Virus record (IMG/VR): IMGVR_UViG_3300025010_000041
Length of the DNA stretch: 32,908 nt
DNA from: an uncultured virus (IMG/VR IMGVR_UViG_3300025010_000041)
Taxonomy: Duplodnaviria; Heunggongvirae; Uroviricota; Caudoviricetes
Strand: one strand, 5' to 3'
Shown: one piece after another, positions 2,023-24,060 of the stretch
How the letters are laid out: each line of letters begins with the position of its first letter
How positions within the stretch are numbered: position 1 is the stretch's first letter
Made by a program: the position numbers and the translations under genes
The notes under the pieces: generated by a model
Told to the model about the DNA's origin: nothing
Databases searched by the model: none
Seen by the model: the letters and a program-made list of their open reading frames with translations, nothing else

Positions 2023-2523
2023 ATGCTGCAAATGGACGCTAACCTACAGACAGTTTTTCTCTCTCAGTTCAACTTCGAGCGGTTCTCCGCTGACGTTTAT
2101 CAGGCAATGGCCGCCGCCCTGGACACGATCAACCTCGTGGGCTTCGCGGCCTATTTGCGTCACCGCGGCGAAGAAGAACGCACCCACGCACAAAAGTTCT
2201 CTGACCACCTCTCAGACCGGAATATCACCCCGGTCTTTGACGCGTTACCCGCCCAAGAGCTTCCGACCTGGACAGGCGCGCCGGACGCCGGAGCCGCTTG
2301 TTTCCGCAAAGCCCACGCTCATGAAGTGCTGGTTACAGAGCGAATCTATGCCCTGTACGAACTGTCCGAGGAAATCGGCGACCACCAGGCTTGCGAATTT
2401 CTGCGCTGGTTTATCGCCGAACAGTTGGAAGAACTGAAAAGCCTCGATGAGTGGCTGACCCGCTTCGATCTGGCGCGTGGCGACGGCGCGGCAGTCCTGC
2501 TTCTTGACAAGGAATTGCAATGA
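2023..2523 (+). CDS. ferritin (non-heme, FtnA-like)
   Basis: Ferroxidase-centre pattern E(RFSADV)Y, EEERTH, HE, EQLEE; GFAAYL and EFLRWFIAEQ typical of bacterial ferritin; AGGAG RBS before ATG 2023. Confidence 0.9.
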   Translation: MLQMDANLQTVFLSQFNFERFSADVYQAMAAALDTINLVGFAAYLRHRGEEERTHAQKFSDHLSDRNITPVFDALPAQELPTWTGAPDAGAACFRKAHAHEVLVTERIYALYELSEEIGDHQACEFLRWFIAEQLEELKSLDEWLTRFDLARGDGAAVLLLDKELQ

Positions 2524-3965
2524 CCCATACCGGCGTTATGGTGGCGTTTTTCTTACCTCCCGATCTGGCGGGTCGAATCGCCGCGCCGGGTGGCGAGCCT
2601 GCAAGCGACTTGCACGTTACCCTCGCTTACCTGGGCGAAAACGCAACCACCCGGCTTGACAAAGCCAGGCTGCTCTCTGTGTTAGGCGGGTTTGCCGCTT
2701 ACCAGTTCGAGATAGAGGGGCAGTTCAACGGTGTGGCGCAGTTTGTCAACGGCGAAGAACGGGCATTCGTGACGCTTTTAGACGCCCCCGCTCTCTCGAA
2801 ATTCCGGCAGCGATTGGTTGAGTGTCTTGAGCAAAACCGCATGGGAGTGGCATACGACCACGGATTTATTCCGCATGTCACGCTGGCCTACAATCAGGCC
2901 CCGGAATACACCGCTGTCGCGGCAGAGTTTGGCAAGCCGATCCTGTTTAGCGAAATTACACTCGCTTGGGGTGATGAACGGGTTACGTTCAAACTACAAG
3001 CGCAGCCGATCATTGAGGCCAAAGAAATCTCAACTACCCCGCCGCAGGCAGTTCGAGACGCCGCAAAGCGCGGCCTGGAATTGCGCGAGAAGTATGGACG
3101 CGGCGGGCTGTCTACGCAAGAGGCCGGCAAACAGGGGATTGGCAGCGGAGTTGCGAGGGCCGTCAGTCTGAGCAAGGGCCAGGCCCAAAGCATGAATACG
3201 ATCAAACGCATGAGTGCGTTTTTCAGCCGTCACGAAAAGAATAAAAACACCCCGCCCGAAAAAGGCAATGGCATGATCGCCTGGTTGATGTGGGGTGGCG
3301 ACCCCGGCAAAGAGTGGGCTGAGGGCTTATTGGCGAAGCGCAAAGAAGTCTCAACCACCCCAACCGGAGTTATGTTGACCGGGCCAGGGAGTCTATTTGG
3401 CGGCACGGCGCTTGCCAATACGATTAGCGCAACGATCTTGAAGCGCAAGCAATTGAGAGCATCCAAACGGACGGCCCCGTTTTCGCAGAGCAAAGAGATC
3501 AACGACTCTTACAAAGAGTTCACCGCGTCGGGCAAGTCTGCCGGTATTTACGTGTTCAAAGAGAATGGCACCTGGCGCTGGGTTACGTTTTCCAGCAACC
3601 CCTACCGCGACAGAGACCGCGAGATTGTCAGTCTGAAAGCTCTGGAAGTGGACGTTTCCAGAGCCGACGCCGATGGCAAGTTCGGCCCGTTGCGCTGGTG
3701 GCATGTGCCGAGGCTGGATTTGGGGGACTGTGATTTCAATATGATGCACGGGCGAATTTTGGTTGAAAGCGGTACATTCCGCACGCCCGAAATAGCAGAA
3801 GCAATCAAGGAGGTCGCTAACGATTTAGAAGTTTCTATCGGGTTTGTTCACCCCCCCTCAGAACCGGACGGTGACGGCGTGTTCCACACTATCCGCAGGT
3901 TTGAACGCTCCCTGTGTCCAAAAGGCCGGGTGAGCAATCTCTTTACCAGGTTCATGGTCGGCTAG
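2520..3965 (+). CDS. fusion: 2H phosphoesterase + unknown helical domain + putative prohead protease
   Basis: Two HxT motifs (LHVTLAY, PHVTLAY) in the first 160 aa; middle domain ending IAWLMWGGDPG; C-terminal RDRDREIV, PLRWWH, VSIGF, ERSL..SN motifs resembling HK97-type maturation proteases; directly upstream of scaffold and capsid. Confidence 0.7.
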   Translation: MTHTGVMVAFFLPPDLAGRIAAPGGEPASDLHVTLAYLGENATTRLDKARLLSVLGGFAAYQFEIEGQFNGVAQFVNGEERAFVTLLDAPALSKFRQRLVECLEQNRMGVAYDHGFIPHVTLAYNQAPEYTAVAAEFGKPILFSEITLAWGDERVTFKLQAQPIIEAKEISTTPPQAVRDAAKRGLELREKYGRGGLSTQEAGKQGIGSGVARAVSLSKGQAQSMNTIKRMSAFFSRHEKNKNTPPEKGNGMIAWLMWGGDPGKEWAEGLLAKRKEVSTTPTGVMLTGPGSLFGGTALANTISATILKRKQLRASKRTAPFSQSKEINDSYKEFTASGKSAGIYVFKENGTWRWVTFSSNPYRDRDREIVSLKALEVDVSRADADGKFGPLRWWHVPRLDLGDCDFNMMHGRILVESGTFRTPEIAEAIKEVANDLEVSIGFVHPPSEPDGDGVFHTIRRFERSLCPKGRVSNLFTRFMVG

Positions 3966-7793: not shown

Positions 7794-8345
7794 ATGACAA
7801 AAGCAAGCGACCTATCCCACGCATTCGGCTTTTTGAAGCAGGCAGAAGTATCTCTGCTGACCCGCCTGGCCGAAAGCCTACCCGACGGAGCCGTGTTTAT
7901 CAACGTTGGAGCCGGAGTGGGCACGTCTGCTCTGACCGTAGCCGAAGCGCGGCCCGATGTGAAGATTTACACCGTTGATATTTCCGAGGGCGGGCCGGAG
8001 GGCGGGCTTGAGAACGAGCGCAACGCATTCACTCACGCCGGACTGTCGGAAAGTCTACCAACGCAAGTATTGGGCGATTCGCGGGCAGTCGGTAGAGACT
8101 GGCAGTTCGAGAGCGCCGACCTGCTGATGATTGACGCCGATCATGCCTACGCTTCTTGCCGCGGCGACCTGGAAGTCTGGACGCCACACCTGAAAGCGGG
8201 CGGCGTGCTGCTGATCCATGACTACGAACCGAAAATATGGCCCGACGTGTTCAAAGCGACGGGCGATTTTATCCGCTCCCAGCCTGAAAGTTGGGAGTTT
8301 ATCGAAGTGCAACATACGCTGATTGCGTATAGGAGTAAGTCATGA
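7794..8345 (+). CDS. class I SAM-dependent methyltransferase (Methyltransf_24-like)
   Basis: INVGAGVGTS motif I, YTVD, GDS, DLLMIDADH, LKAGGVLLIHDY. Confidence 0.88.
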   Translation: MTKASDLSHAFGFLKQAEVSLLTRLAESLPDGAVFINVGAGVGTSALTVAEARPDVKIYTVDISEGGPEGGLENERNAFTHAGLSESLPTQVLGDSRAVGRDWQFESADLLMIDADHAYASCRGDLEVWTPHLKAGGVLLIHDYEPKIWPDVFKATGDFIRSQPESWEFIEVQHTLIAYRSKS

Positions 8346-9013
8346 AAATTCTAAAAACTGAGGGTGACGTAAAGCTGCCCGCCTCTGCTTATCTGGTAGT
8401 TGAGGATGCCGAAAAGCCGTCCACCTGGCACTTGCGCATTGGCGGCGAATCGGGCCTTCCTGACCCCGCTCACATGGGCGCAGCCTGGGCAGCACTGCAC
8501 GAGGGATACCGCGGCGAGAAGTACGCAGGCCCGCAAAAAGAGGAGGCCCTGGCGAAGTTGAAGAAACTCTACGCCGCGCTGAAACGCGACACCCCCGATG
8601 TTGAGAAGAAAGAGTATGACGGGTCATGGAGCGAACTCACCTGGAAAGAAGCGCCCTCGTTTGGTGAATGGCTGATCCGCTCCAAAGAAGATGCTCCGGT
8701 TGAACCAAACGAAGCCGTTGATCCCAAAGCCCTGCACTTACGCGTGGGACGGGCGCTGGCAAAGTTTGGCTTGAAGCCCTCGAAAGCCATTGACACCGGC
8801 GAACACGCCGAGGCGCACGGGTCGGCCTGGGTTGCACCCAAAACCGACTTCGAGAAGATCAAAACCGGCTTGTGGGACTTGGGTTATCGGCCCAAAGGCA
8901 AAGGCAAGTATTTCCGCGGCCCGGTCATGATCGAAACCGGACAGGACGCCGAGAACCTGTACCTGTATATCACAGACGACAACGGCCCTGCCCAAAAGAA
9001 GGCGGCGGCATGA
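8342..9013 (+). CDS. hypothetical two-domain protein
   Basis: 223-aa ORF with ATGA overlaps at both ends; the N-terminal PASAYLVV..PSTWHL..GAAWAAL..GYRG domain resembles modules I associate with phage head proteins, function unknown. Confidence 0.65.
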   Translation: MKILKTEGDVKLPASAYLVVEDAEKPSTWHLRIGGESGLPDPAHMGAAWAALHEGYRGEKYAGPQKEEALAKLKKLYAALKRDTPDVEKKEYDGSWSELTWKEAPSFGEWLIRSKEDAPVEPNEAVDPKALHLRVGRALAKFGLKPSKAIDTGEHAEAHGSAWVAPKTDFEKIKTGLWDLGYRPKGKGKYFRGPVMIETGQDAENLYLYITDDNGPAQKKAAA

Positions 9014-9636
9014 GTGTCTCGCGCAAACAGCAGGCGCTAAAGCGACGTCTTGCGATTGCGTTTGGCGCGCCACTGCTGCCCGATGAAATGCCAACTACGC
9101 CCCCGGTCAAAGCGAGGGCATTGGCGGCGGCGTTCGGCTACCTCTTTCCAGAGGAAGTCACGCTGCTGTCTGTCCTGGCCGAAAGCCTGCCCGCCGGAGC
9201 CGTGTTTGTCAACATTGGAGCGGGGTCTGGAACGAGTTCGCTTTGCGTGACAGAAACCAATCCGGCAGTGAAAGCCTACACAGTAGATATTTCTGACGGT
9301 GGCCCATTTGGCGGACTGGAAAACGAGCGCAACGCCTTCGCTGAAACCGGACTGCCGCTGCCGTCACAAATTTTAGGCGACTCGCACGCCGCGGGTAAAC
9401 TGTGGATCGGCGGCAAAGTAGACATGCTATTTGTGGACGCCGACCACAGCTTCGAGGGGTGCAACGGTGATATTGAGGCGTGGCACCCGCACGTTGTGGC
9501 GGGCGGGATCATTGTCTTTCATGATTACGAACGAGACTTCTGGCCCGAAGTGAAACAGGCCGTAGACGCCGCGGCTGAGCGGTATGGTTGGGAGTTGATT
9601 GAACAGCGCGGCACCATGATCGCATTCAGGAAGTGA
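9010..9636 (+). CDS. class I SAM-dependent methyltransferase, paralog of 7794..8345
   Basis: ATGA-coupled start 9010; VNIGAGSGTS, YTVDISDGGPFGGLENERNAF (nearly identical to paralog), FVDADH, GGIIVFHDY. Confidence 0.88.
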   Translation: MSVSRKQQALKRRLAIAFGAPLLPDEMPTTPPVKARALAAAFGYLFPEEVTLLSVLAESLPAGAVFVNIGAGSGTSSLCVTETNPAVKAYTVDISDGGPFGGLENERNAFAETGLPLPSQILGDSHAAGKLWIGGKVDMLFVDADHSFEGCNGDIEAWHPHVVAGGIIVFHDYERDFWPEVKQAVDAAAERYGWELIEQRGTMIAFRK

Positions 9637-9637
9637 C

Positions 9638-12571
9638 ATGAAAATCTACATCGAACCGACGCCGGGGAATGCCCCGCCGAGCAACGGGATCGGGCGCGTT
9701 GTTCACGCCCAATTTGAACACCTGCCAAAGTTAGGGATTGAGATCGTCAAAACCTACCGCAAAGCAGACGTGATCGCTTCTCACGTGGAGCAGTTCAATT
9801 TGCCACGCGTAGACGTGCTGCACTCCCACGGTCTCTATTTTGACGATATTCCCAACGCCGGTTATGACGCCTGGCAGTACACCGCCAATGCCCACATTGC
9901 CCAAGCTGTGCGCAGAGCTAAGATTCTAACCGTCCCTGCCCCCTGGGTTGCGATGCCGTTCAAGCGAGATATGCACCTAAGCCCGTGGATCGTCCCGCAT
10001 GGAATTGACTTTGCCGATTGGAACCCCGGCGAGAATCGGGGCTATCTATTCTGGAATAAAGGCCGCGCCAATGACGTCTGTGACCCCGTCCCGGCATGGG
10101 AGTTGGCAGAAGCAGGTCTGCCGGTGGTATCGACGTTCAACCCATTGAACCGTCCAACCGGAAAGTTGAAAGTGGTCGGGGCACAATCGTTCGAGAAGAT
10201 GCGCCTGCTGATCCAATCGGCGGATATTTACCTCGCCACTACCCCCGAAACTTTCGGGATCGGCACCCTCGAAGCAATGGCCTGTGGCTTGCCCGTCCTG
10301 GGCTACCGTTGGGCAGGAACCGCCGATATCGTTCAGCACATGGAAACCGGGTATCTGGTTGAGCCGGGCGACGTCAACGGGCTAAAAGTCGGCTACCAGT
10401 GGTTGAAAGCCAACCGCGAGGCCGTGGGCGCGGCGGCCAGAGAGTTCGCTTCGCGCTTCGATTGGCCCAATGTGATCGGGGAGTACGCCAAAGTCTATCA
10501 AGCGGCCATGTCCATTCCAGACGAAAAGACCGTCGCGGTTGGGATTATCTCTTACAACTATGCGCAATATTTACCGAAAGCGATAGAGTCTGTCCTGGCC
10601 CAATCGCGCGCGCCAAACGAGATTGTGGTGATAGATGACGGGTCAACCGATAACACCGCCGAAGTCGTTTCCCGCTATTCTGACCGGGTGCGTTATATCC
10701 GGCAGGAAAACCAGGGGGTTGCCGCGGCCCGCATGAACGCAATTGCGGCGACCAAGTCAGACTTTTTGACCCTGCTTGACGCCGACGATTGGTTGGAGCC
10801 GTCATTTGTGCTGGCAATGGAGCGGGCGCTTGTGGCTGACCGTGGACTTGGGATCGCTTACGCCGGGTTTATGAGTTGCAACAGCGAGGGCAAAAAGAGC
10901 GGTACGGTCTACGGAACGCCGTTCGATTGGGAAATCCAGGCGCGTGGTGGTGTGCCCCCGGCGACGGCAGTTCCTACGCCGTCCGCTTGCATGTTCAGGC
11001 GCAGAATGTTCGAGCGGGCCGGCAGTAAAATCTATCAAGAGTTCGCACCCGGCGAGGATGCTGAGTTTTGGGCACGCGGGCTGTCTACCGGCTTCACGGC
11101 GCAACTGGTGACAAGCGAGGCGCTGACCAATTACCGGATGCACGCTGAGGGCGCAAGTAAAAAGCGCAAGTACGTTCGGGTGGACACCTGGCTGCCGTGG
11201 ATGCGTGACAAAATCTACCCGTTCGCTGCCCCGGTCAAGTCACAGATACGCGTACGCTCTTACATGCTGCCGCGCGTATCCGTGATTATTCCAGTTGGGC
11301 CGGGGCACGAGAAACTCTTGCTTGACGCGGTGCGCTCTTTAGAAGGGCAAAGCGAACGACTGTGGGAGTTGATCGTGGTCGCCGATACCGACCTGCCTGA
11401 ATCGGATATACGCACCGTTTACCCGTTCGCAACGGTTGTACCGGGGCGCAGGTTAGGCGCTGGCGCGGCCCGTAATGACGGGTTGAAAGAGGCCAGAGGG
11501 ACATTCGTCGTCTTTCTTGACGCCGATGATTACCTGCACCCGGAGGCGCTTGAGAAATTACTTGCCGCCTATGACCAAAGCGGGTATGTCTACTCGGACT
11601 GGTACGCCGTCACCGGAGCGTCCGCCGAAGTGAAACAGTTGAAAGAGTACGATCCTAACAGTGACAATCTTCAACACGCCGTGACCGTACTCATGCCAAC
11701 GGTCTGGGCCAAGCGGCTGAAATTTGACGAATCTCTCCCGGCGTGGGAGGATGTGGAATATTACAACCAGGCGCGCTCTCTTGGCTTCTGCGGGAAGCGT
11801 GTAGCCGAACCTCTGTTATACTATCGGTTAGAGACTGGGAAGCGCAGAGCCGCGGCCCTGAAAGAGAAAAAGAAACTTGCCGCCTATATTGAGAAGCGGC
11901 AAAAAGCGAGGCATATTATGGCTTGTGGATCATGCCCCTCCCCCGCGGGCGGGGTGATTATGAAAGCAAAGAAGGAGTTGAATCCAATGGGAAACCAAAC
12001 CGAACCAATCGCCTCCCCGCAAGACGGGGTGGTCAGAATGATATACACCGGCGGTGGGCGCGGCGTGCGCACCTATATCGCCAACAAACGCACCTACCGC
12101 GCCGGCGACTCTGACGGGAGCCGAGCTATCAATGCTCACCCCGCCGACGTTGAACGACTGCGGGCGCTGGGCTTCGAGGTGGTGGCGCGTCCACTGCCCC
12201 AGGCGCAGCCGTTGGTGACGGCCCCTATCCCCGCACCTGAACCCGCTCTCGCGCCCGCGCCGATGCCCACTCCGGCAGTTGAAAAGACGGTGGTGACGGC
12301 CAAGCCGATGGCGACCAATGCCCACGTTCCCGCACCGGCAGTGACCCCGGTCAAGAAGCAAGCGCCGAAACCCGCCGATCCGCTGCCCATACCGGAGGAA
12401 GTGACGGAAATCCCGCCTATGCCTGAGACGGTGCGCGGACTGCGGGCGGCCATTGCTGCCGGAGTTGGCGAAAGCGTGATCCGCTCATGGGAATACGATG
12501 AGCGCGCCAAAGGCGATAGCGCCCGCAAAGAGTACCTGAAAATCTTACGTCAAGCCAAACAGGGTGCGTAA
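9638..12571 (+). CDS. multidomain glycosyltransferase (GT4 + GT2 + GT2 + Pro/Ala-rich C-terminus)
   Basis: ETFGIGTLEAMACGLPV (GT-B/GT4); YN..YLPKAIESVLAQ..VIDDGSTD..LLDADD (GT2); VSVIIPV..AARN.G..FLDADD (second GT2). Confidence 0.92.
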   Translation: MKIYIEPTPGNAPPSNGIGRVVHAQFEHLPKLGIEIVKTYRKADVIASHVEQFNLPRVDVLHSHGLYFDDIPNAGYDAWQYTANAHIAQAVRRAKILTVPAPWVAMPFKRDMHLSPWIVPHGIDFADWNPGENRGYLFWNKGRANDVCDPVPAWELAEAGLPVVSTFNPLNRPTGKLKVVGAQSFEKMRLLIQSADIYLATTPETFGIGTLEAMACGLPVLGYRWAGTADIVQHMETGYLVEPGDVNGLKVGYQWLKANREAVGAAAREFASRFDWPNVIGEYAKVYQAAMSIPDEKTVAVGIISYNYAQYLPKAIESVLAQSRAPNEIVVIDDGSTDNTAEVVSRYSDRVRYIRQENQGVAAARMNAIAATKSDFLTLLDADDWLEPSFVLAMERALVADRGLGIAYAGFMSCNSEGKKSGTVYGTPFDWEIQARGGVPPATAVPTPSACMFRRRMFERAGSKIYQEFAPGEDAEFWARGLSTGFTAQLVTSEALTNYRMHAEGASKKRKYVRVDTWLPWMRDKIYPFAAPVKSQIRVRSYMLPRVSVIIPVGPGHEKLLLDAVRSLEGQSERLWELIVVADTDLPESDIRTVYPFATVVPGRRLGAGAARNDGLKEARGTFVVFLDADDYLHPEALEKLLAAYDQSGYVYSDWYAVTGASAEVKQLKEYDPNSDNLQHAVTVLMPTVWAKRLKFDESLPAWEDVEYYNQARSLGFCGKRVAEPLLYYRLETGKRRAAALKEKKKLAAYIEKRQKARHIMACGSCPSPAGGVIMKAKKELNPMGNQTEPIASPQDGVVRMIYTGGGRGVRTYIANKRTYRAGDSDGSRAINAHPADVERLRALGFEVVARPLPQAQPLVTAPIPAPEPALAPAPMPTPAVEKTVVTAKPMATNAHVPAPAVTPVKKQAPKPADPLPIPEEVTEIPPMPETVRGLRAAIAAGVGESVIRSWEYDERAKGDSARKEYLKILRQAKQGA

Positions 12572-12574
12572 ACC

Positions 12575-13231
12575 GTGACCAACCTATTCATCACCGGCTA
12601 CCCGCGCAGCGGGAATACCTGGACTAACCGGCTGCTCTCGGATATTCTGGATTCGCCGCTGCAAAACACCCCTGATATGGAGCCGATCTACTACGGCGAA
12701 ACGGGCGGCAAATACGTCATTCTCAAGCGCCACTCGAAGGTGCGAGAGGGGCTGACGCTCTTTGTCTACCGTGACCCGCGTGACGTGGCGGTATCTCGAC
12801 TGTTTTACTACCGACTGTCCGGTCTGACCACCGCGATTGACGGCATGCTGGGAATCAATGGTGACACCGTGGACGCGGTCGGGTCAGTGATTGGCGAGTA
12901 CAACGGGTTCGTTCGCACCTGGTACAACCGGGCCGATGCGCAGATTCGCTATGAAGATTTGCACGCCTCCCCGGTTGAAACTCTCTCGCTGGCAATCTTG
13001 GGCCTGACCGGCGAAACGATTGACCCCGACAAAATCAGGCTGGCGGTAGAGCGGCAATCGTTCGCAGCGACAGTTGAGCGCAACGGGCCGGAACACGCCA
13101 TGCGGCGCGGTCAAGTCGGTGACTGGCGCAACCACTTCAACCGCGAGAACAGCGAACACATCACCCGTCTGTTTGGCGAGTTGATGCTTGAACAGGGCTA
13201 TATTGACAGCCTGGATTGGTGGCAGAAATGA
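12575..13231 (+). CDS. PAPS-dependent sulfotransferase
   Basis: GYPRSGNTW (5'-PSB loop), YRDPRDVAVS (3'-PB), RYEDL, RRGQVGDWRNHF. Confidence 0.92.
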   Translation: MTNLFITGYPRSGNTWTNRLLSDILDSPLQNTPDMEPIYYGETGGKYVILKRHSKVREGLTLFVYRDPRDVAVSRLFYYRLSGLTTAIDGMLGINGDTVDAVGSVIGEYNGFVRTWYNRADAQIRYEDLHASPVETLSLAILGLTGETIDPDKIRLAVERQSFAATVERNGPEHAMRRGQVGDWRNHFNRENSEHITRLFGELMLEQGYIDSLDWWQK

Positions 13232-19627: not shown

Positions 19628-19644
19628 AGACAGTGGAGGCACAA

Positions 19645-21069
19645 ATGTCAAGTACGAATGTCAAACGACCTGATACCCGTTTCTCAAATGATCGGCTGGC
19701 CGGCGGATACGGCGCGCTGGCGGCCACGCAAGACTCTCTGGCGCTCTTGCGCCGGGCGGTTCTCGCCAATCTGTTGTGGGAAAATATCGCCTACGAGGAC
19801 GGCGAGTCTGTAGTGGCGAATATCACCCGGCTTGTGCCGCTGTGCAAGCCCGAAGATGTGGCGACCCTGGCAATCGAGGCCCGCACCCAGCAGAAGTTGC
19901 GCCACGTGCCGTTGTTCCTGGCGCTGCAAATGGCCGAACACAAAACCCACCTGCCGCTTGTCGGGAGTCTGTTACCGAAGATTTGTCTGCGGCCCGATGA
20001 TCTGACTGAGTTCGTTGCGCTCTACTGGAAAGAGAAAAAGCGCCCGCTGGCAAAGCAGATCAAGATCGGCCTGGCGGCGGCTTTCCAGAAGTTTGACGCT
20101 TACCAGTTGGGCAAGTACAAAGCCGATGGCAAGACCGTCTCTCTGCGCGACGTGATGTTCCTGGTTCACCCGACCCCTGCGAACGACGCTCAGGCGGGAG
20201 TCTGGAAACAGTTTGCCGATCAGACTCTACCCGCTCCCGATACCTGGGAAGTGGCGCTCTCCACCGGCAAAGACAAGAAAGCCACCTGGGAGCGTCTGAT
20301 TTTGGAAAACAAGTTAGGCGGCTTGGCGTTCCTGCGCAACTTGAAGAACATGCAAGCGGCGGGAGTTTCTCGCACGACTCTGGCGCATGGGTTTACTCAT
20401 GTCAAAACCGGCTGGCTCTTACCGCTGGACTTTTTGAAGGCAGTCAAAATGGCTCCCGAATATGTGCGCGAGATCGAAACTATGATGCTGAATACGCTTC
20501 GGAATATGCCCAAGCTGACCGGGCGCACGATCATGGTGGTGGACGTTTCCGGCTCTATGGCGAGTAAGATTTCAGAGAAAAGCGATTTTACTCGCATGGA
20601 CGCGGCCCTGGCAATGGCGATGTTAGCCGCCGAAGTCTGCGAATCGGTTGCAATTTACGCCACCGCCGGCAGTGATAGAGACCGCCAGCACAACACGGCG
20701 AAAGTTTCCGCCTATCACGGTTTTGGGTTGATCGAGTCCATTATGGGCGTTGGGAAGCAATTGGGCGGCGGCGGTATCTTTACTCGCCAGTGCCTGGAAT
20801 ATATCAAAGAGCAAGAGAAAGAGACCCCAGACCGGGTTATTATTTTCTCCGACTCTCAGGACTGCGATTTCCCTGATAAGCGCACGCCGCGCCCGATTGG
20901 TGAGCGCAACTATATCTGTGACGTTTCAGCCAATGCGCACGGGGTCGCTTACAAGAGCGTTTGGTCGGCTGAGATTTCGGGCTTTAGCGAACACTTCCTG
21001 AGCTTCATCATGGCCCTGGAGGGCTTGCGGGTAGAAGTTGGAGCAGACGACGAATTGCAAACTCAATAG
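19645..21069 (+). CDS. Ro60/Rsr-like TROVE + vWA domain RNA-binding protein
   Basis: GGAGG RBS before ATG 19645; TROVE motifs LRHVP, RPDDLTE, FDAYQLGKY, LRDVMFLVHP, PDTWE, AFLRNL; vWA MIDAS VDVSGSM, GGGIF, IIFSDSQ. Confidence 0.92.
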   Translation: MSSTNVKRPDTRFSNDRLAGGYGALAATQDSLALLRRAVLANLLWENIAYEDGESVVANITRLVPLCKPEDVATLAIEARTQQKLRHVPLFLALQMAEHKTHLPLVGSLLPKICLRPDDLTEFVALYWKEKKRPLAKQIKIGLAAAFQKFDAYQLGKYKADGKTVSLRDVMFLVHPTPANDAQAGVWKQFADQTLPAPDTWEVALSTGKDKKATWERLILENKLGGLAFLRNLKNMQAAGVSRTTLAHGFTHVKTGWLLPLDFLKAVKMAPEYVREIETMMLNTLRNMPKLTGRTIMVVDVSGSMASKISEKSDFTRMDAALAMAMLAAEVCESVAIYATAGSDRDRQHNTAKVSAYHGFGLIESIMGVGKQLGGGGIFTRQCLEYIKEQEKETPDRVIIFSDSQDCDFPDKRTPRPIGERNYICDVSANAHGVAYKSVWSAEISGFSEHFLSFIMALEGLRVEVGADDELQTQ

Positions 21070-21082
21070 TTTTTCAAAACGG

Positions 21083-21118
21083 AAAGAGCGGGTCAGAATC
21101 AATCTGGCTCGCTCTTTT
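21083..21118 (+). terminator. intrinsic terminator after TROVE gene
   Basis: AAAGAGCGGGTCAGA / TCTGGCTCGCTCTTT stem ending in a T run. Confidence 0.7.
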
Positions 21119-21237
21119 GTATACGCTAATCAACCTTTTTGTGACATTCTCCTTAATACAATATGTATTAAGTAAAGTGCATAAAAACATTTTACTATAC
21201 GAAAGAAAAGCGGCGATTTTCGCCAGAAATGGGGAAT

Positions 21238-21330
21238 TGTGGTATACTAATATTGTCGAAGTGCAGTTCGGCACATGGTATAATCAACCCGTCCCCGCTA
21301 ATCTGCTGCACACAGATTAGCGGGGATTTT
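21238..21330 (+). promoter_or_regulatory. tandem extended -10 promoters and 14-bp leader hairpin of the Cas7-like gene
   Basis: TGTGGTATACT 21238-21248, TGGTATAAT 21276-21284, perfect stem TCCCCGCTAATCTG/CAGATTAGCGGGGA 21292-21326 followed by TTTT. Confidence 0.65.
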
Positions 21331-21349
21331 CGTAACTTAGGAGGTTCGC

Positions 21350-21925
21350 ATGTATGTCGTTTCAATCACGGTTAAGGGCGTTTGTCCGTTACTTCAAAAC
21401 CGCTTCCCCATGCCAGAGTTCGGAGACCTGAGCAAGGGCGGCAAGAAGTCAACCGGCTCTCCTGACTATTCGCAAGAATGGCGCAGCCACCTGTACGCGG
21501 CTGGTGGAAAGATTTACCAGCCGTCCAGCCACTTCGAGGGCGCGATTATCAAAGCCGGGGCCAGCTTCAAAATCCAGGGCAAGCGCGGCAAAACTTATCG
21601 CGACTTACTCGCCGCGTCTATCATCATTGATCCCGAACAGATTCCCCACAATATGGACGTTCCCGAAGAACTGGATGCTGACGCCGACAAGCCGCTTTAT
21701 CTGGACGTGCGCCCGGTGGTTATTCAGCGGGCGCGCATTGTGCGCGTGCGCCCGGCGTTCAAGGCGGGTTGGGAATTGTCTTTCGAGATCGCGGTCGGTG
21801 ACGACGAAATCCAGCCCGACTTACTCCAGGACATTCTGGCAATGGCAGGAAAAAGCATTGGTATTGGCGACTTTCGCCCACGGTTTGGCCGCTTCAATGT
21901 GATTAACTTCGCGGTTCACAAATAA
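21350..21925 (+). CDS. stand-alone Cas7/RAMP-like RNA-binding protein
   Basis: AGGAGG RBS; RAMP layout: N-terminal strand ITVKGVCPLL, IYQPSSHFEGAI (equivalent to YIPGSSxKG), RP..W.LSFEI strand, C-terminal Gly-rich loop GIGDFRPRFGRF; no other cas genes in the window. Confidence 0.75.
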   Translation: MYVVSITVKGVCPLLQNRFPMPEFGDLSKGGKKSTGSPDYSQEWRSHLYAAGGKIYQPSSHFEGAIIKAGASFKIQGKRGKTYRDLLAASIIIDPEQIPHNMDVPEELDADADKPLYLDVRPVVIQRARIVRVRPAFKAGWELSFEIAVGDDEIQPDLLQDILAMAGKSIGIGDFRPRFGRFNVINFAVHK

Positions 21926-22035
21926 CTTTGTGGCGAGGGCAAGGTCAGGTCAGGAACGGCGCGGTCTGGCGTGGCGCGGTCTGGTCTGGCACGGATCGGC
22001 CCGGCACGGTAAGGTATGGCACGGTATGGATTTTT
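21926..22035 (+). repeat. GG(Y/A)-NN pentamer array 1 (putative guide RNA)
   Basis: Leader CTTTGTGGCGAG, then 19 GGH triplets in exact 5-nt phase (21938-22030) separated by 18 variable dinucleotides, ending GGTATGGA-TTTTT. Confidence 0.9.
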
Positions 22036-22135
22036 CTTTGCGGAGCGGGCAAGGTAAGCCGTGGCACGGTAGGGTGAGGCGAGGCATGGCGTGGTACGGT
22101 CAGGTAAGGTAAGGTATGGTATGGCTAACTTTTTT
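22036..22135 (+). repeat. GG(Y)-NN pentamer array 2 (putative guide RNA)
   Basis: Leader CTTTGCGGAGCG, then 16 triplets (15 GGY, one GCC) in 5-nt phase (22048-22125) with 15 variable dinucleotides, ending GGTATGGC then a T run. Confidence 0.9.
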
Positions 22136-22411
22136 GAGTTAGAAAACTTTCCGGGGGTGAAATTTCCCTGGTTTTCTCGTATGAGTCTTAGCGCCTGGAT
22201 ACCGCTTAAGCAATATGTTTATCTGCGCGACGGTGGCAAATGTCGCTATTGCGAAAAACCTACACTCTACGAGGAAACTCACTGTCACCACGTTTTAGAG
22301 TTATCAGAGGGGGGCACTAACCATCCCTCGAATCTAAAGACGCTTTGCAAAACGTGTCATAAAAAGCGCCACCCGTTTATGCTATCAGTGAGGGACAAAC
22401 TAAAAAAATAA
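22121..22411 (+). CDS. HNH endonuclease
   Basis: RDGGKCRYC ... HCHHVLELSEGGTNHPSNLKTLCKTCHKKRH; likely start ATG 22121 in the last unit of array 2. Confidence 0.92.
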   Translation: MANFFELENFPGVKFPWFSRMSLSAWIPLKQYVYLRDGGKCRYCEKPTLYEETHCHHVLELSEGGTNHPSNLKTLCKTCHKKRHPFMLSVRDKLKK

Positions 22412-22497
22412 TGCTATAATACAAGTGTCGGGCCTACTGTAGAGTAGGCCAGTCACGCGGAAATTGACGCCCGTTGCGATAACGGACGTCTTTTTTT
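22412..22497 (+). promoter_or_regulatory. extended -10 promoter, structured leader and attenuator-like terminator of tail operon
   Basis: TGCTATAAT 22412-22420; GGCCTACT-GTAG-AGTAGGCC 22431-22450; CGCGGAAATTGACG 22456-22469; GACGCCCGTT/AACGGACGTC stem followed by T7. Confidence 0.7.
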
Positions 22498-22521
22498 GTT
22501 TACACACAAGGAAGGTTTGAA

Positions 22522-24060
22522 ATGACGAATAAAATCACGACCGACGAGATCGTCAGTCAGCGGCATAAACGGAATTTTCTCCAGTGGGGCGGCCCCTATC
22601 CCGGCAACCGCCTGACCTATGCCGGCGTAGACGGCCAGTATGCCGCGGTGGACGGCGTGACTGTCCCCGAAGCGGGCGGGATTGACCCGATCTGGGTGCC
22701 CAACCCGTTTGTCCCTGGGCGCTACCGCCTGGTAGGCCGCTCAATTACCCCGCCTGATCTGGCGTCTATGACTCTGATGCTGAAAGAAAAGCACCGCTTT
22801 ATCCCGAAGCAGTTGAAGCCGATCAAATGCCCGATCAACATTTACGAACCGACCGGCACCTGCAAGAACCCGTCCGACTTCTTGCGCGGCTGGTCGGATT
22901 ACGTGCTGATCTACTCCCTGGGCCTGGTCTCCGAAAAAGACTTGGGTACTCGCACCACCTGGGACAGTGACGATGCGATGGAAGATTCGCTCTCGTTGAC
23001 CCTGGTCTCGATCTACCCGATTGGCTCTCTGGCGTTCTGCCAGGAAGCGAGTTCGGAGATCGACCGGCAGGTGGTGGACGTGGTCTTTGGTTCGGTTGAG
23101 CAATGCTCAGGCTGCGGCGCTGAGGATGACGGCACAAAGCGGATTTACGCCGTCACCAAATCCAGCGGCGGCTCGCCCGGTTTGCCGTCCGAGATTGTCT
23201 ACTCGCTCGATGGCGGGTTGACCTGGTCTCAGGCCAATATCGACGGCATGACCGTTGCGGAAGATGCCCTGGCAATCGAAGTCGCCGGGCAGTATGTGAT
23301 TGTGATCGGCGCGGGCGCGGTCTACTACTCCGAGTTGAACGCAGAAACCGGCGTCCCCGGAACGTTCACCAAAGTCACTACCGGGATCGTTGATGCCGGC
23401 ACCCCCCGCGACCTGTATGTCGCTTCTCCGCGTGAAATCTGGATGTGCGGCGACGGCGGCTATGTCTACAAGTCAACCGACGTCACTGCCGGATTTACTG
23501 CCGTTCTGGACGGTGGCGTCTACACCGACGATCTGAAACGGATCAGCGGCGACGATGACGGCACGATTGTTGCTGTGGGCGCAAACGGGCAAATCCTGTA
23601 CTCGACCAATCGCGGCGCGACCTGGACGAGTTCGGCGACCACCCCGACTGCTGCCACCCTGCAAGCGATCAACGCCAAGTCCGACCGCCTGTGGTGGATC
23701 GGCACCGCCACCGGGCTGGTCTACTACACGCAAAATGGCGGCGCTTCCTGGTCGCAACTGACTTTCAGCGGATCGGGCACCGGTCAAATCTATGACATTG
23801 TGTCAGCCACCGAAGAAGTCATGTACATCGCCAAAGACGACGCCACCCCCACCGCTTCGATCCTGGCGAGTTGGAACGGCGGGCAGGACTGGACAACCAG
23901 CAGCCCCCGGATCGTAGGCTTACCGGTCTTTGACTCGCCCACCCGGCTGGCCGTTCCCGACGCCGAGCCCGGTACCGCCGCCAACACCCTGGCCGTGGGC
24001 GGGATCGCAGGCGACGCCACTGACGGCATTCTGCTGATCGCCGTCGCTGCCTCTCTGTAA
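22522..24060 (+). CDS. putative major tail (tube) protein with C-terminal BNR/Asp-box beta-propeller
   Basis: Directly upstream of chaperone and tape measure genes; capsid-like codon bias; Asp-boxes YSLDGGLTW, YSTNRGATW, YTQNGGASW, ASWNGGQDW. Confidence 0.7.
   Translation: MTNKITTDEIVSQRHKRNFLQWGGPYPGNRLTYAGVDGQYAAVDGVTVPEAGGIDPIWVPNPFVPGRYRLVGRSITPPDLASMTLMLKEKHRFIPKQLKPIKCPINIYEPTGTCKNPSDFLRGWSDYVLIYSLGLVSEKDLGTRTTWDSDDAMEDSLSLTLVSIYPIGSLAFCQEASSEIDRQVVDVVFGSVEQCSGCGAEDDGTKRIYAVTKSSGGSPGLPSEIVYSLDGGLTWSQANIDGMTVAEDALAIEVAGQYVIVIGAGAVYYSELNAETGVPGTFTKVTTGIVDAGTPRDLYVASPREIWMCGDGGYVYKSTDVTAGFTAVLDGGVYTDDLKRISGDDDGTIVAVGANGQILYSTNRGATWTSSATTPTAATLQAINAKSDRLWWIGTATGLVYYTQNGGASWSQLTFSGSGTGQIYDIVSATEEVMYIAKDDATPTASILASWNGGQDWTTSSPRIVGLPVFDSPTRLAVPDAEPGTAANTLAVGGIAGDATDGILLIAVAASL

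Follow-up and report, generated by a model that had tools for sequence, protein, structure and literature searches.

The tract at 21938–22029 on the + strand of the DNA analysed here (a stretch of 32,908 nt, hereafter the window), termed array 1, is very probably the repeat tract of a VIPR guide RNA (vrRNA), carried by an uncultured groundwater phage. The locus is a further example of a kind of VIPR that has already been published and is not new in itself. VIPR was first described in 2026 as a CRISPR-like phage weapon (10.64898/2026.04.26.720920), in which Vipr, a minimal RAMP, is reported to polymerise on a vrRNA made of YNNGG repeats, with one protomer per repeat (10.64898/2026.04.26.720920, 10.64898/2026.04.26.720927, 10.64898/2026.10.15.759431). 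By the 1-nt skip rule given for the system, the NN dinucleotides are read against double-stranded DNA and each third target base stays unread (10.64898/2026.04.26.720920).

Array 1 was composed of 18 phased GGYNN units, equivalent to YNNGG units counted from 21940, followed by a closing GG. GG was present in 18/18 units, the third base was C or T in 16/18 and A in the other two, and the NN string was AA CA CA AC GC CT GT GC CT CT AC TC CC AC AA AT AC AT. In a period scan of the 32,908 nt, runs of at least five GG at period 5 were obtained only twice, namely at array 1 and at a second array (array 2), and no period-5 run of CC, TT, GC or CG was present in the window; both GG runs lie at this one locus, and the periodicity is far above chance. 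Array 2 (22048–22124, +) holds 15 units, of which unit 3 (GCCGT) is degenerate, and the ATG start codon of a gene for a small HNH nuclease overlaps the closing GG of the array. The inter-array spacer at 22030–22047 (+), ATTTTTCTTTGCGGAGCG, would combine the U-rich end of vrRNA 1 with the boundary motif TTTGCGG of vrRNA 2 (22037–22043). The corresponding motif before array 1, TTTGTGG, is located at 21927–21933 (+) and was assigned from the TTGNGG enrichment described below. Ends of the type GG-TTTYTT, like that of array 1, were also present in the relatives L001, L002 and L081.

Array 1 begins 13 nt past the stop codon of the vipr gene at 21350–21925 (+), the product of which is a Vipr homologue that models as a Cas7-like RAMP. 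The protein (P0001, 191 aa, single RRM, G-loop GIGDFRPRFGRF) was assigned by its PDB 36pp_D match, an AF2 model and Foldseek. Residues 64–184 matched PDB 36pp chain D, 'SUSP1 Vipr protein', at E 8.3e-11; the family assignment was phrog_4652, function unknown, and no Pfam family was found for the 191-aa product. For SUSP1 Vipr, contacts to G1, G2 and Y3 are reported for R138, D177, W178 and R179 (10.64898/2026.04.26.720927). Counted on the 36pp_D alignment, these residues correspond to R134, D174, F175 and R176 of the window protein, with F as the aromatic residue replacing W, and R134, D174 and R176 were invariant across an alignment of 30 homologues. AF2 prediction from the single sequence was useless (pLDDT 31); from the 30-homologue alignment a model with pLDDT 81.8 and pTM 0.77 was obtained. 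The best Foldseek matches of this model in the PDB were Cas7/Csm3 of type VII and type III-A complexes (E 7e-6 to 1e-4, TM 0.5–0.6).

In metagenomes, 462 proteins were homologous to Vipr at E ≤1e-3, and the best 120 of the 462 showed 59–99% identity. Relatives in the phage collection were those of Felixounaviruses (27.8% identity) and of phage DSL-LC04 (34.5%), and no near phage relative of the window was found. Among 401 genomes of the order around a Janthinobacterium genome, homologues were encoded in only 3, and these were distant (35–39% identity).

The window is phage DNA, encoding a minor head protein, a tape measure protein, tail proteins and auxiliary genes, with all plausible genes on the + strand. 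The VIPR locus is flanked by a Ro60-like gene on one side and by the tail module on the other. The product of the Ro60-like gene (19633–21069), which lies shortly before the VIPR unit, is of the Ro60/TROVE type and includes a vWA domain (Pfam TROVE, E 2e-18; phrog_850 'RNA-binding protein', E 6e-36). Rfam searches of the whole window at gathering score, and of 20900–22600 at E ≤1, revealed neither a Y RNA nor a YrlA-like RNA. Two further gene regions of the phage were recorded. At 2520–3965 lies a gene whose 481-aa product carries a 2'-5' RNA ligase/LigT-like phosphoesterase domain at the N-terminus (Pfam 2_5_RNA_ligase2, E 1.3e-9); its match to the anti-CBASS Acb1 family was sub-threshold (E 3.5e-5, 24 bits versus a cut-off of 27), and it may be a candidate cyclic-nucleotide-degrading counter-defence gene. 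At 1999–2523 and 7794–13231, genes unusual for a phage are located, comprising a Dps/ferritin-like gene, two Methyltransf_24 genes, a 977-aa multi-domain glycosyltransferase and a sulfotransferase, and these auxiliary genes look like a surface-glycan modification cassette.

Consensus scans returned two promoter-like sites upstream of vipr, TCGCCA-17-TATACT with a TG element at 21220–21248 (+) and TGgTATAAT at 21276–21284 (+), to which a promoter function is ascribed by inference. Between these sites and the ribosome-binding site of vipr, a putative 13-bp hairpin followed by a U-run (ATTTTCG) is placed at 21293–21332 (+), which possibly controls the VIPR unit as an attenuator or terminator. In Rfam this hairpin had weak similarity to CopA (E 0.18, 24 bits versus a gathering score of 60); at gathering score, the whole window gave no Rfam match, and near the VIPR locus two sub-threshold matches were obtained. 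A terminator-like hairpin with a T-run, predicted after the HNH gene at 22471–22500 (+), is the probable end of a vipr-vrRNA-HNH unit. Upstream of the promoter-like sites, an AT-rich segment at 21114–21191 with the palindrome TTAATACAATATGTATTAA was common to many other contigs in four groundwater/soil runs. Its summed depth in run X5 was about 90–158, compared to about 11–16 in the flanks, and contigs ended at 21136, 21160, 21187 and 21191. The segment may represent a regulatory cassette of wide distribution or else a small mobile element, and the 67-aa ORF at 21117–21320 is probably spurious.

For comparison with relatives, 80 loci from an alignment-based IMG/VR scan were combined with L001 and L002 to a set of 82 loci. 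The HNH gene at 22121–22411 (+), encoding 96 aa (Pfam HNH, E 7e-12), had a homologue (54–64% identity) downstream on the same strand in 14/14 loci with a Vipr 56–65% identical to that of the window, and in 0/68 of the more distant loci; the HNH gene is therefore taken as the clade's specific accessory gene (vap) and not as a passenger. Its N-terminus was conserved from residue 1 in L076, L077, L079, L085 and L124 (L077 duplicates L076). Flanking GGYNN arrays accompanied vipr in all 14 close relatives as well as in L001 and L002, whose Vipr is 33–35% identical, and in the 14 close relatives the arrays were located between vipr and the HNH gene or directly after the latter. In one of them, L085, a 15-unit GGYNN array at 1439–1510 on the minus strand lies opposite the vipr strand and about 1 kb upstream, unlike in the other 13 clade loci. 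The presence of an HNH partner makes target cutting, and not just silencing, a candidate role.

Unit statistics were calculated from a pool of 37 arrays with 488 units, taken from 13 close loci plus the window; L077 was excluded as the duplicate, as were arrays located before position 2000 in all loci but L074 and L086. Over the 488 units, the fixed positions were G in 93%, G in 91% and C/T in 89%, and NN comprised all 16 dinucleotides. TTGNGG occurred ≤30 nt upstream of 24/37 clade arrays, its background frequency being 1 per 519 nt. Of the 111 NN in the three closing units of these arrays, 79 were AA, AT or GA, compared to 38% overall, and the closing units are probably a conserved AA/AT/GA end and not guide. 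Units 15–18 of array 1 (within 21938–22029, +) are accordingly annotated as the conserved AA/AT-type 3' end and units 1–14 as the likely guide core. The boundaries of guides in this clade, with TTTGYGG on the 5' side and the AA/AT/GA end on the 3' side, are thus now visible, and the latter is best omitted from target searches.

The original prediction had taken the array as a guide in which NN alone is informative and one base is skipped per unit, and this agrees both with the published VIPR code and with the Vipr homologue encoded upstream. It had arrived at that code from the raw sequence alone; as that code was published in April 2026, the decoding is not in itself a new finding. Its reading of the NN pairs as codon positions 1 and 2, (K/N)(Q/H)(Q/H)TALVALLTSPT(K/N)(I/M)T(I/M), was correctly transcribed from the + strand. 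The proposed coincidence of the skip with the wobble position is likewise on record: the skip in natural VIPR targets is reported to fall mostly on the codon wobble position, and most targets are in coding sequence (10.64898/2026.04.26.720920, 10.64898/2026.10.15.759431). The proposal that the guide is aimed at a different mobile element matches, in kind, the targets published, which are usually other mobile elements, with rival satellites, prophages and other VIPR loci among them (10.64898/2026.04.26.720920, 10.64898/2026.04.26.720927, 10.64898/2026.10.15.759431).

Other parts of the peptide reading stood only in part, and its likeness to the N-termini of HTH or small-terminase proteins is putative. 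Units 1–14 are the likely core, but the tail (K/N)(I/M)T(I/M) is probably unread and not target-specifying, because the last three to four units (AA AT AC AT) lie within the conserved 3' end. The count of stop-compatible units was right (TA/TG in 0/18), but its absence is no evidence for coding, because the TA+TG share in the 488 clade units was 7.6%, compared to 7.5% expected from base marginals, and the probability of finding no TA/TG in 18 units was about 0.24 with clade NN frequencies (0.09 under uniform dinucleotides). The forward direction, finally, is one of two possibilities: published targets are on either strand (10.64898/2026.04.26.720920), so that the reverse-complement reading is a priori as likely as KQQTALVALLTSPT. 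Either the sense peptide (..QQTALVALLTSPT) or its reverse complement may apply.

The principal alternative accepts array 1 as a true vrRNA and places its site not in the sense strand of an HTH/small-terminase gene, as originally proposed, but antisense to a gene or in non-coding or host DNA, and its chance is only somewhat short of even. In its favour are, besides the targets on both strands and the non-significant TA/TG absence, the antisense orientation of the positive control to vipr (see below) and the satellite vrRNAs directed at host REP decoys (10.64898/2026.10.15.759431). Against it stand the published targets, most of which are coding with the skip on the wobble position, and, weakly, the forward reading itself, which is hydrophobic, helix-like and free of stop-compatible units.

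As a positive control, every called array of the 82 loci and the window was run against each other. Several guides of a third clade, with a Vipr about 30% identical to that of the window, matched related phages. The 10-unit guide at L140:2306–2360 matched the vipr gene of another locus (L138:2678–2706) at 20/20 NN positions, antisense and with the skip on the wobble position, so that the wobble rule was reproduced here too. The homologous vipr site of nine further loci was matched at 18–19/20, again antisense with the skip on wobble, whereas the guide matched its own vipr at 14/20; the best of 200 shuffled guides reached 17/20. The pair L140/L138 is a self/non-self example inside the Vipr family, and reproduces both the published skip rule and the idea of guides aimed at the VIPR genes of rivals. 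The 1-nt skip scan is thus able to recover true targets, and guide 1 had no comparable match. For the window's own clade, a skip length of 1 nt is an assumption, because its Vipr is far from the tested proteins (27.8% identity to the Felixounavirus copies).

In the window, guide 1 had no self-target at ≤3 mismatches. With a 1-nt skip its best site there scored 20/36, compared to a shuffled-guide mean of 21, and changing the skip to 0, 2 or 3 nt likewise gave null-level scores; a peptide-level (BLOSUM) six-frame scan of the window with both readings remained below null. These computed scans agree with the original statement, made by eye, that the window holds no convincing match. Large collections were searched with exact blocks or at ≤3 mismatches. 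The exact 13-unit pattern of guide 1 gave 0 matches in IMG/VR, GTDB genomes and JGI metagenomes. With units 2–10, 5, 36 and 29 matches were obtained, about the chance level for 18 fixed bases, and at these matches the remaining four core units never exceeded 4/8. The best-looking of them, in L030, was dropped, as it fell in a high-GC ORF of about 480 aa that has a signal-peptide-like N-terminus and does not look like a phage gene. Units 6–14 gave 0 matches, and units 2–5 plus 11–14 gave 18, at which the middle five units reached ≤5/10. Against the 82 VIPR loci (425 kb), the best score of guide 1 was 19/28 (null 19.0), and there was no site at ≤3 mismatches in 15 related phages, scanned over their complete records, or in 5 bacterial genomes. 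Units 3–11 of array 2 gave one match, with the flanking units at chance. The array itself, searched as a 5-nt pattern in IMG/VR, gave 0 matches in a set that contained neither the window's contig nor the variant array. In searches with exact blocks or at ≤3 mismatches, matches to the guide pattern thus did not stand out from background, an outcome that the original prediction had named as counting against it.

The natural variation of the locus was followed in metagenomes. The window stretch was found in 19 listed run rows from 10 studies, mostly of groundwater, and contigs of four runs were compared with the VIPR locus. All 19 are presumed DNA runs and no RNA run is among them, which says nothing for or against expression of the arrays. 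A contig of run X5 matched the end of vipr and the start of the HNH gene with 15 and 11 differences; the 270 nt between these flanks, covering both arrays (window 21832–22103), were 'same length, diverged', and the contig is a sister strain with other guides. Another contig, present in X5, X9 and X12 and at about 10x the phage depth in X5, shared only 21947–21989, that is array 1 from unit 2/3 to unit 10, and both of its flanks differed yet again consisted of YNNGG units. A second array elsewhere therefore shares the core CA AC GC CT GT GC CT CT and then differs.

This second array, found in the same metagenome runs in another context, also bears on the possibility that array 1 is a decoy or sponge, for example a captured or solo vrRNA that redirects the Vipr of a rival phage. 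Such a role is reported for solo vrRNAs of satellites and VIPR-null phages, which redirect rival Vipr (10.64898/2026.10.15.759431). For array 1 it is improbable: the array lies directly behind a vipr gene of its own, and this position and the boundary motif are common to all 14 close relatives.

That the tract is instead a gene for a glycine/tryptophan-rich peptide (ORF 21930–22112, 60 aa) or structural DNA such as a G-quadruplex or packaging site, with no RNA guide, is scarcely credible: the ORF exists, and GG every 5 nt could give two-tetrad quadruplexes, but stops occur in all three + frames in 12/37 clade arrays, which rules out a peptide gene, NN is hypervariable and GGY fixed, the opposite of coding or motif constraint on NN, and the close linkage to Vipr explains the pattern fully.

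With array 1 read as a vrRNA, the following mechanism is proposed. Transcription would start from the promoter-like sites at 21220–21284 and end at the terminator past the HNH gene, and both arrays would be freed as vrRNAs bounded by the TTTGYGG motif and a U-rich end. By analogy with the SUSP1 and P. fulva systems, each unit would be bound by one Vipr protomer with GGY buried and NN displayed, and the NN would pair with double-stranded DNA, every third target base being skipped. The 13–14 core NN of guide 1, (AA) CA CA AC GC CT GT GC CT CT AC TC CC AC, would then specify a site of about 41 bp, most likely within a protein-coding gene that belongs to a competing phage or satellite, the skipped position being the wobble base. 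The linked HNH protein may, as a conjecture, cut at the site specified by the guide.

The locus represents the HNH-linked clade cleanly in a phage from groundwater. It also hints at guides with a shared core circulating among the loci of one community. A more far-reaching interpretation is that the HNH-linked Vipr clade, here seen only in uncultured phages, cuts its targets, and that the two aquifer loci with a shared guide core of 8–9 units and different ends reflect several phages targeting one conserved site of a common rival and tracking its variants; this is put forward tentatively and regarded as rather unlikely. If the HNH protein does cut guide-specified DNA, the clade would be a natural test of how a silencing system became a destroying one.

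Compared to type II VIPR (SUSP1, P. fulva prophage), the locus is alike in being phage-borne, in its single small RAMP with a D-aromatic-R G-loop and a thumb arginine, and in its YNNGG guide genes in intergenic DNA by vipr with GGY fixed and NN hypervariable. It is also alike in that there is no self-target in the window; the 2026 VIPR preprints report no self-targeting. It differs in its accessory gene, an HNH nuclease in the window and the DNA-binding vap1 in type II. Sequence identity between the window's Vipr and the Felixounavirus copies is about 28%, and the arrays comprise 18 and 15 units compared to the 9–16 reported for type II. Unlike in the SUSP1 model, in which the guide carries a pseudoknot tail of about 40 nt, no such tail is evident here, where only about 18 nt separate the arrays; the boundaries of the window arrays consist of TTTGYGG on the 5' side of each and an AA/AT/GA end with a U-run, and array 2 enters the HNH start codon.

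Nuclease vaps are reported from VIPR types III–V, and an HNH-domain Vap is mentioned in the legend of fig. S21 (10.64898/2026.04.26.720920). The combination of Vipr, YNNGG vrRNAs and a predicted nuclease as accessory is shared with these types; types III and V are described as enriched in cellular defence islands, whereas the window locus is in a phage (10.64898/2026.04.26.720920). Unlike class 1 CRISPR systems, the window lacks a repeat-spacer array, adaptation genes and any further cas genes. With Cas7/Csm3 of type III-A and type VII, Vipr shares the RRM fold, the G-loop, the thumb, one subunit per fixed guide step and bases flipped at each step, and it differs from them in the step itself, which is 5 nt with 3 buried in Vipr and 6 nt with 1 flipped in Cas7/Csm3.
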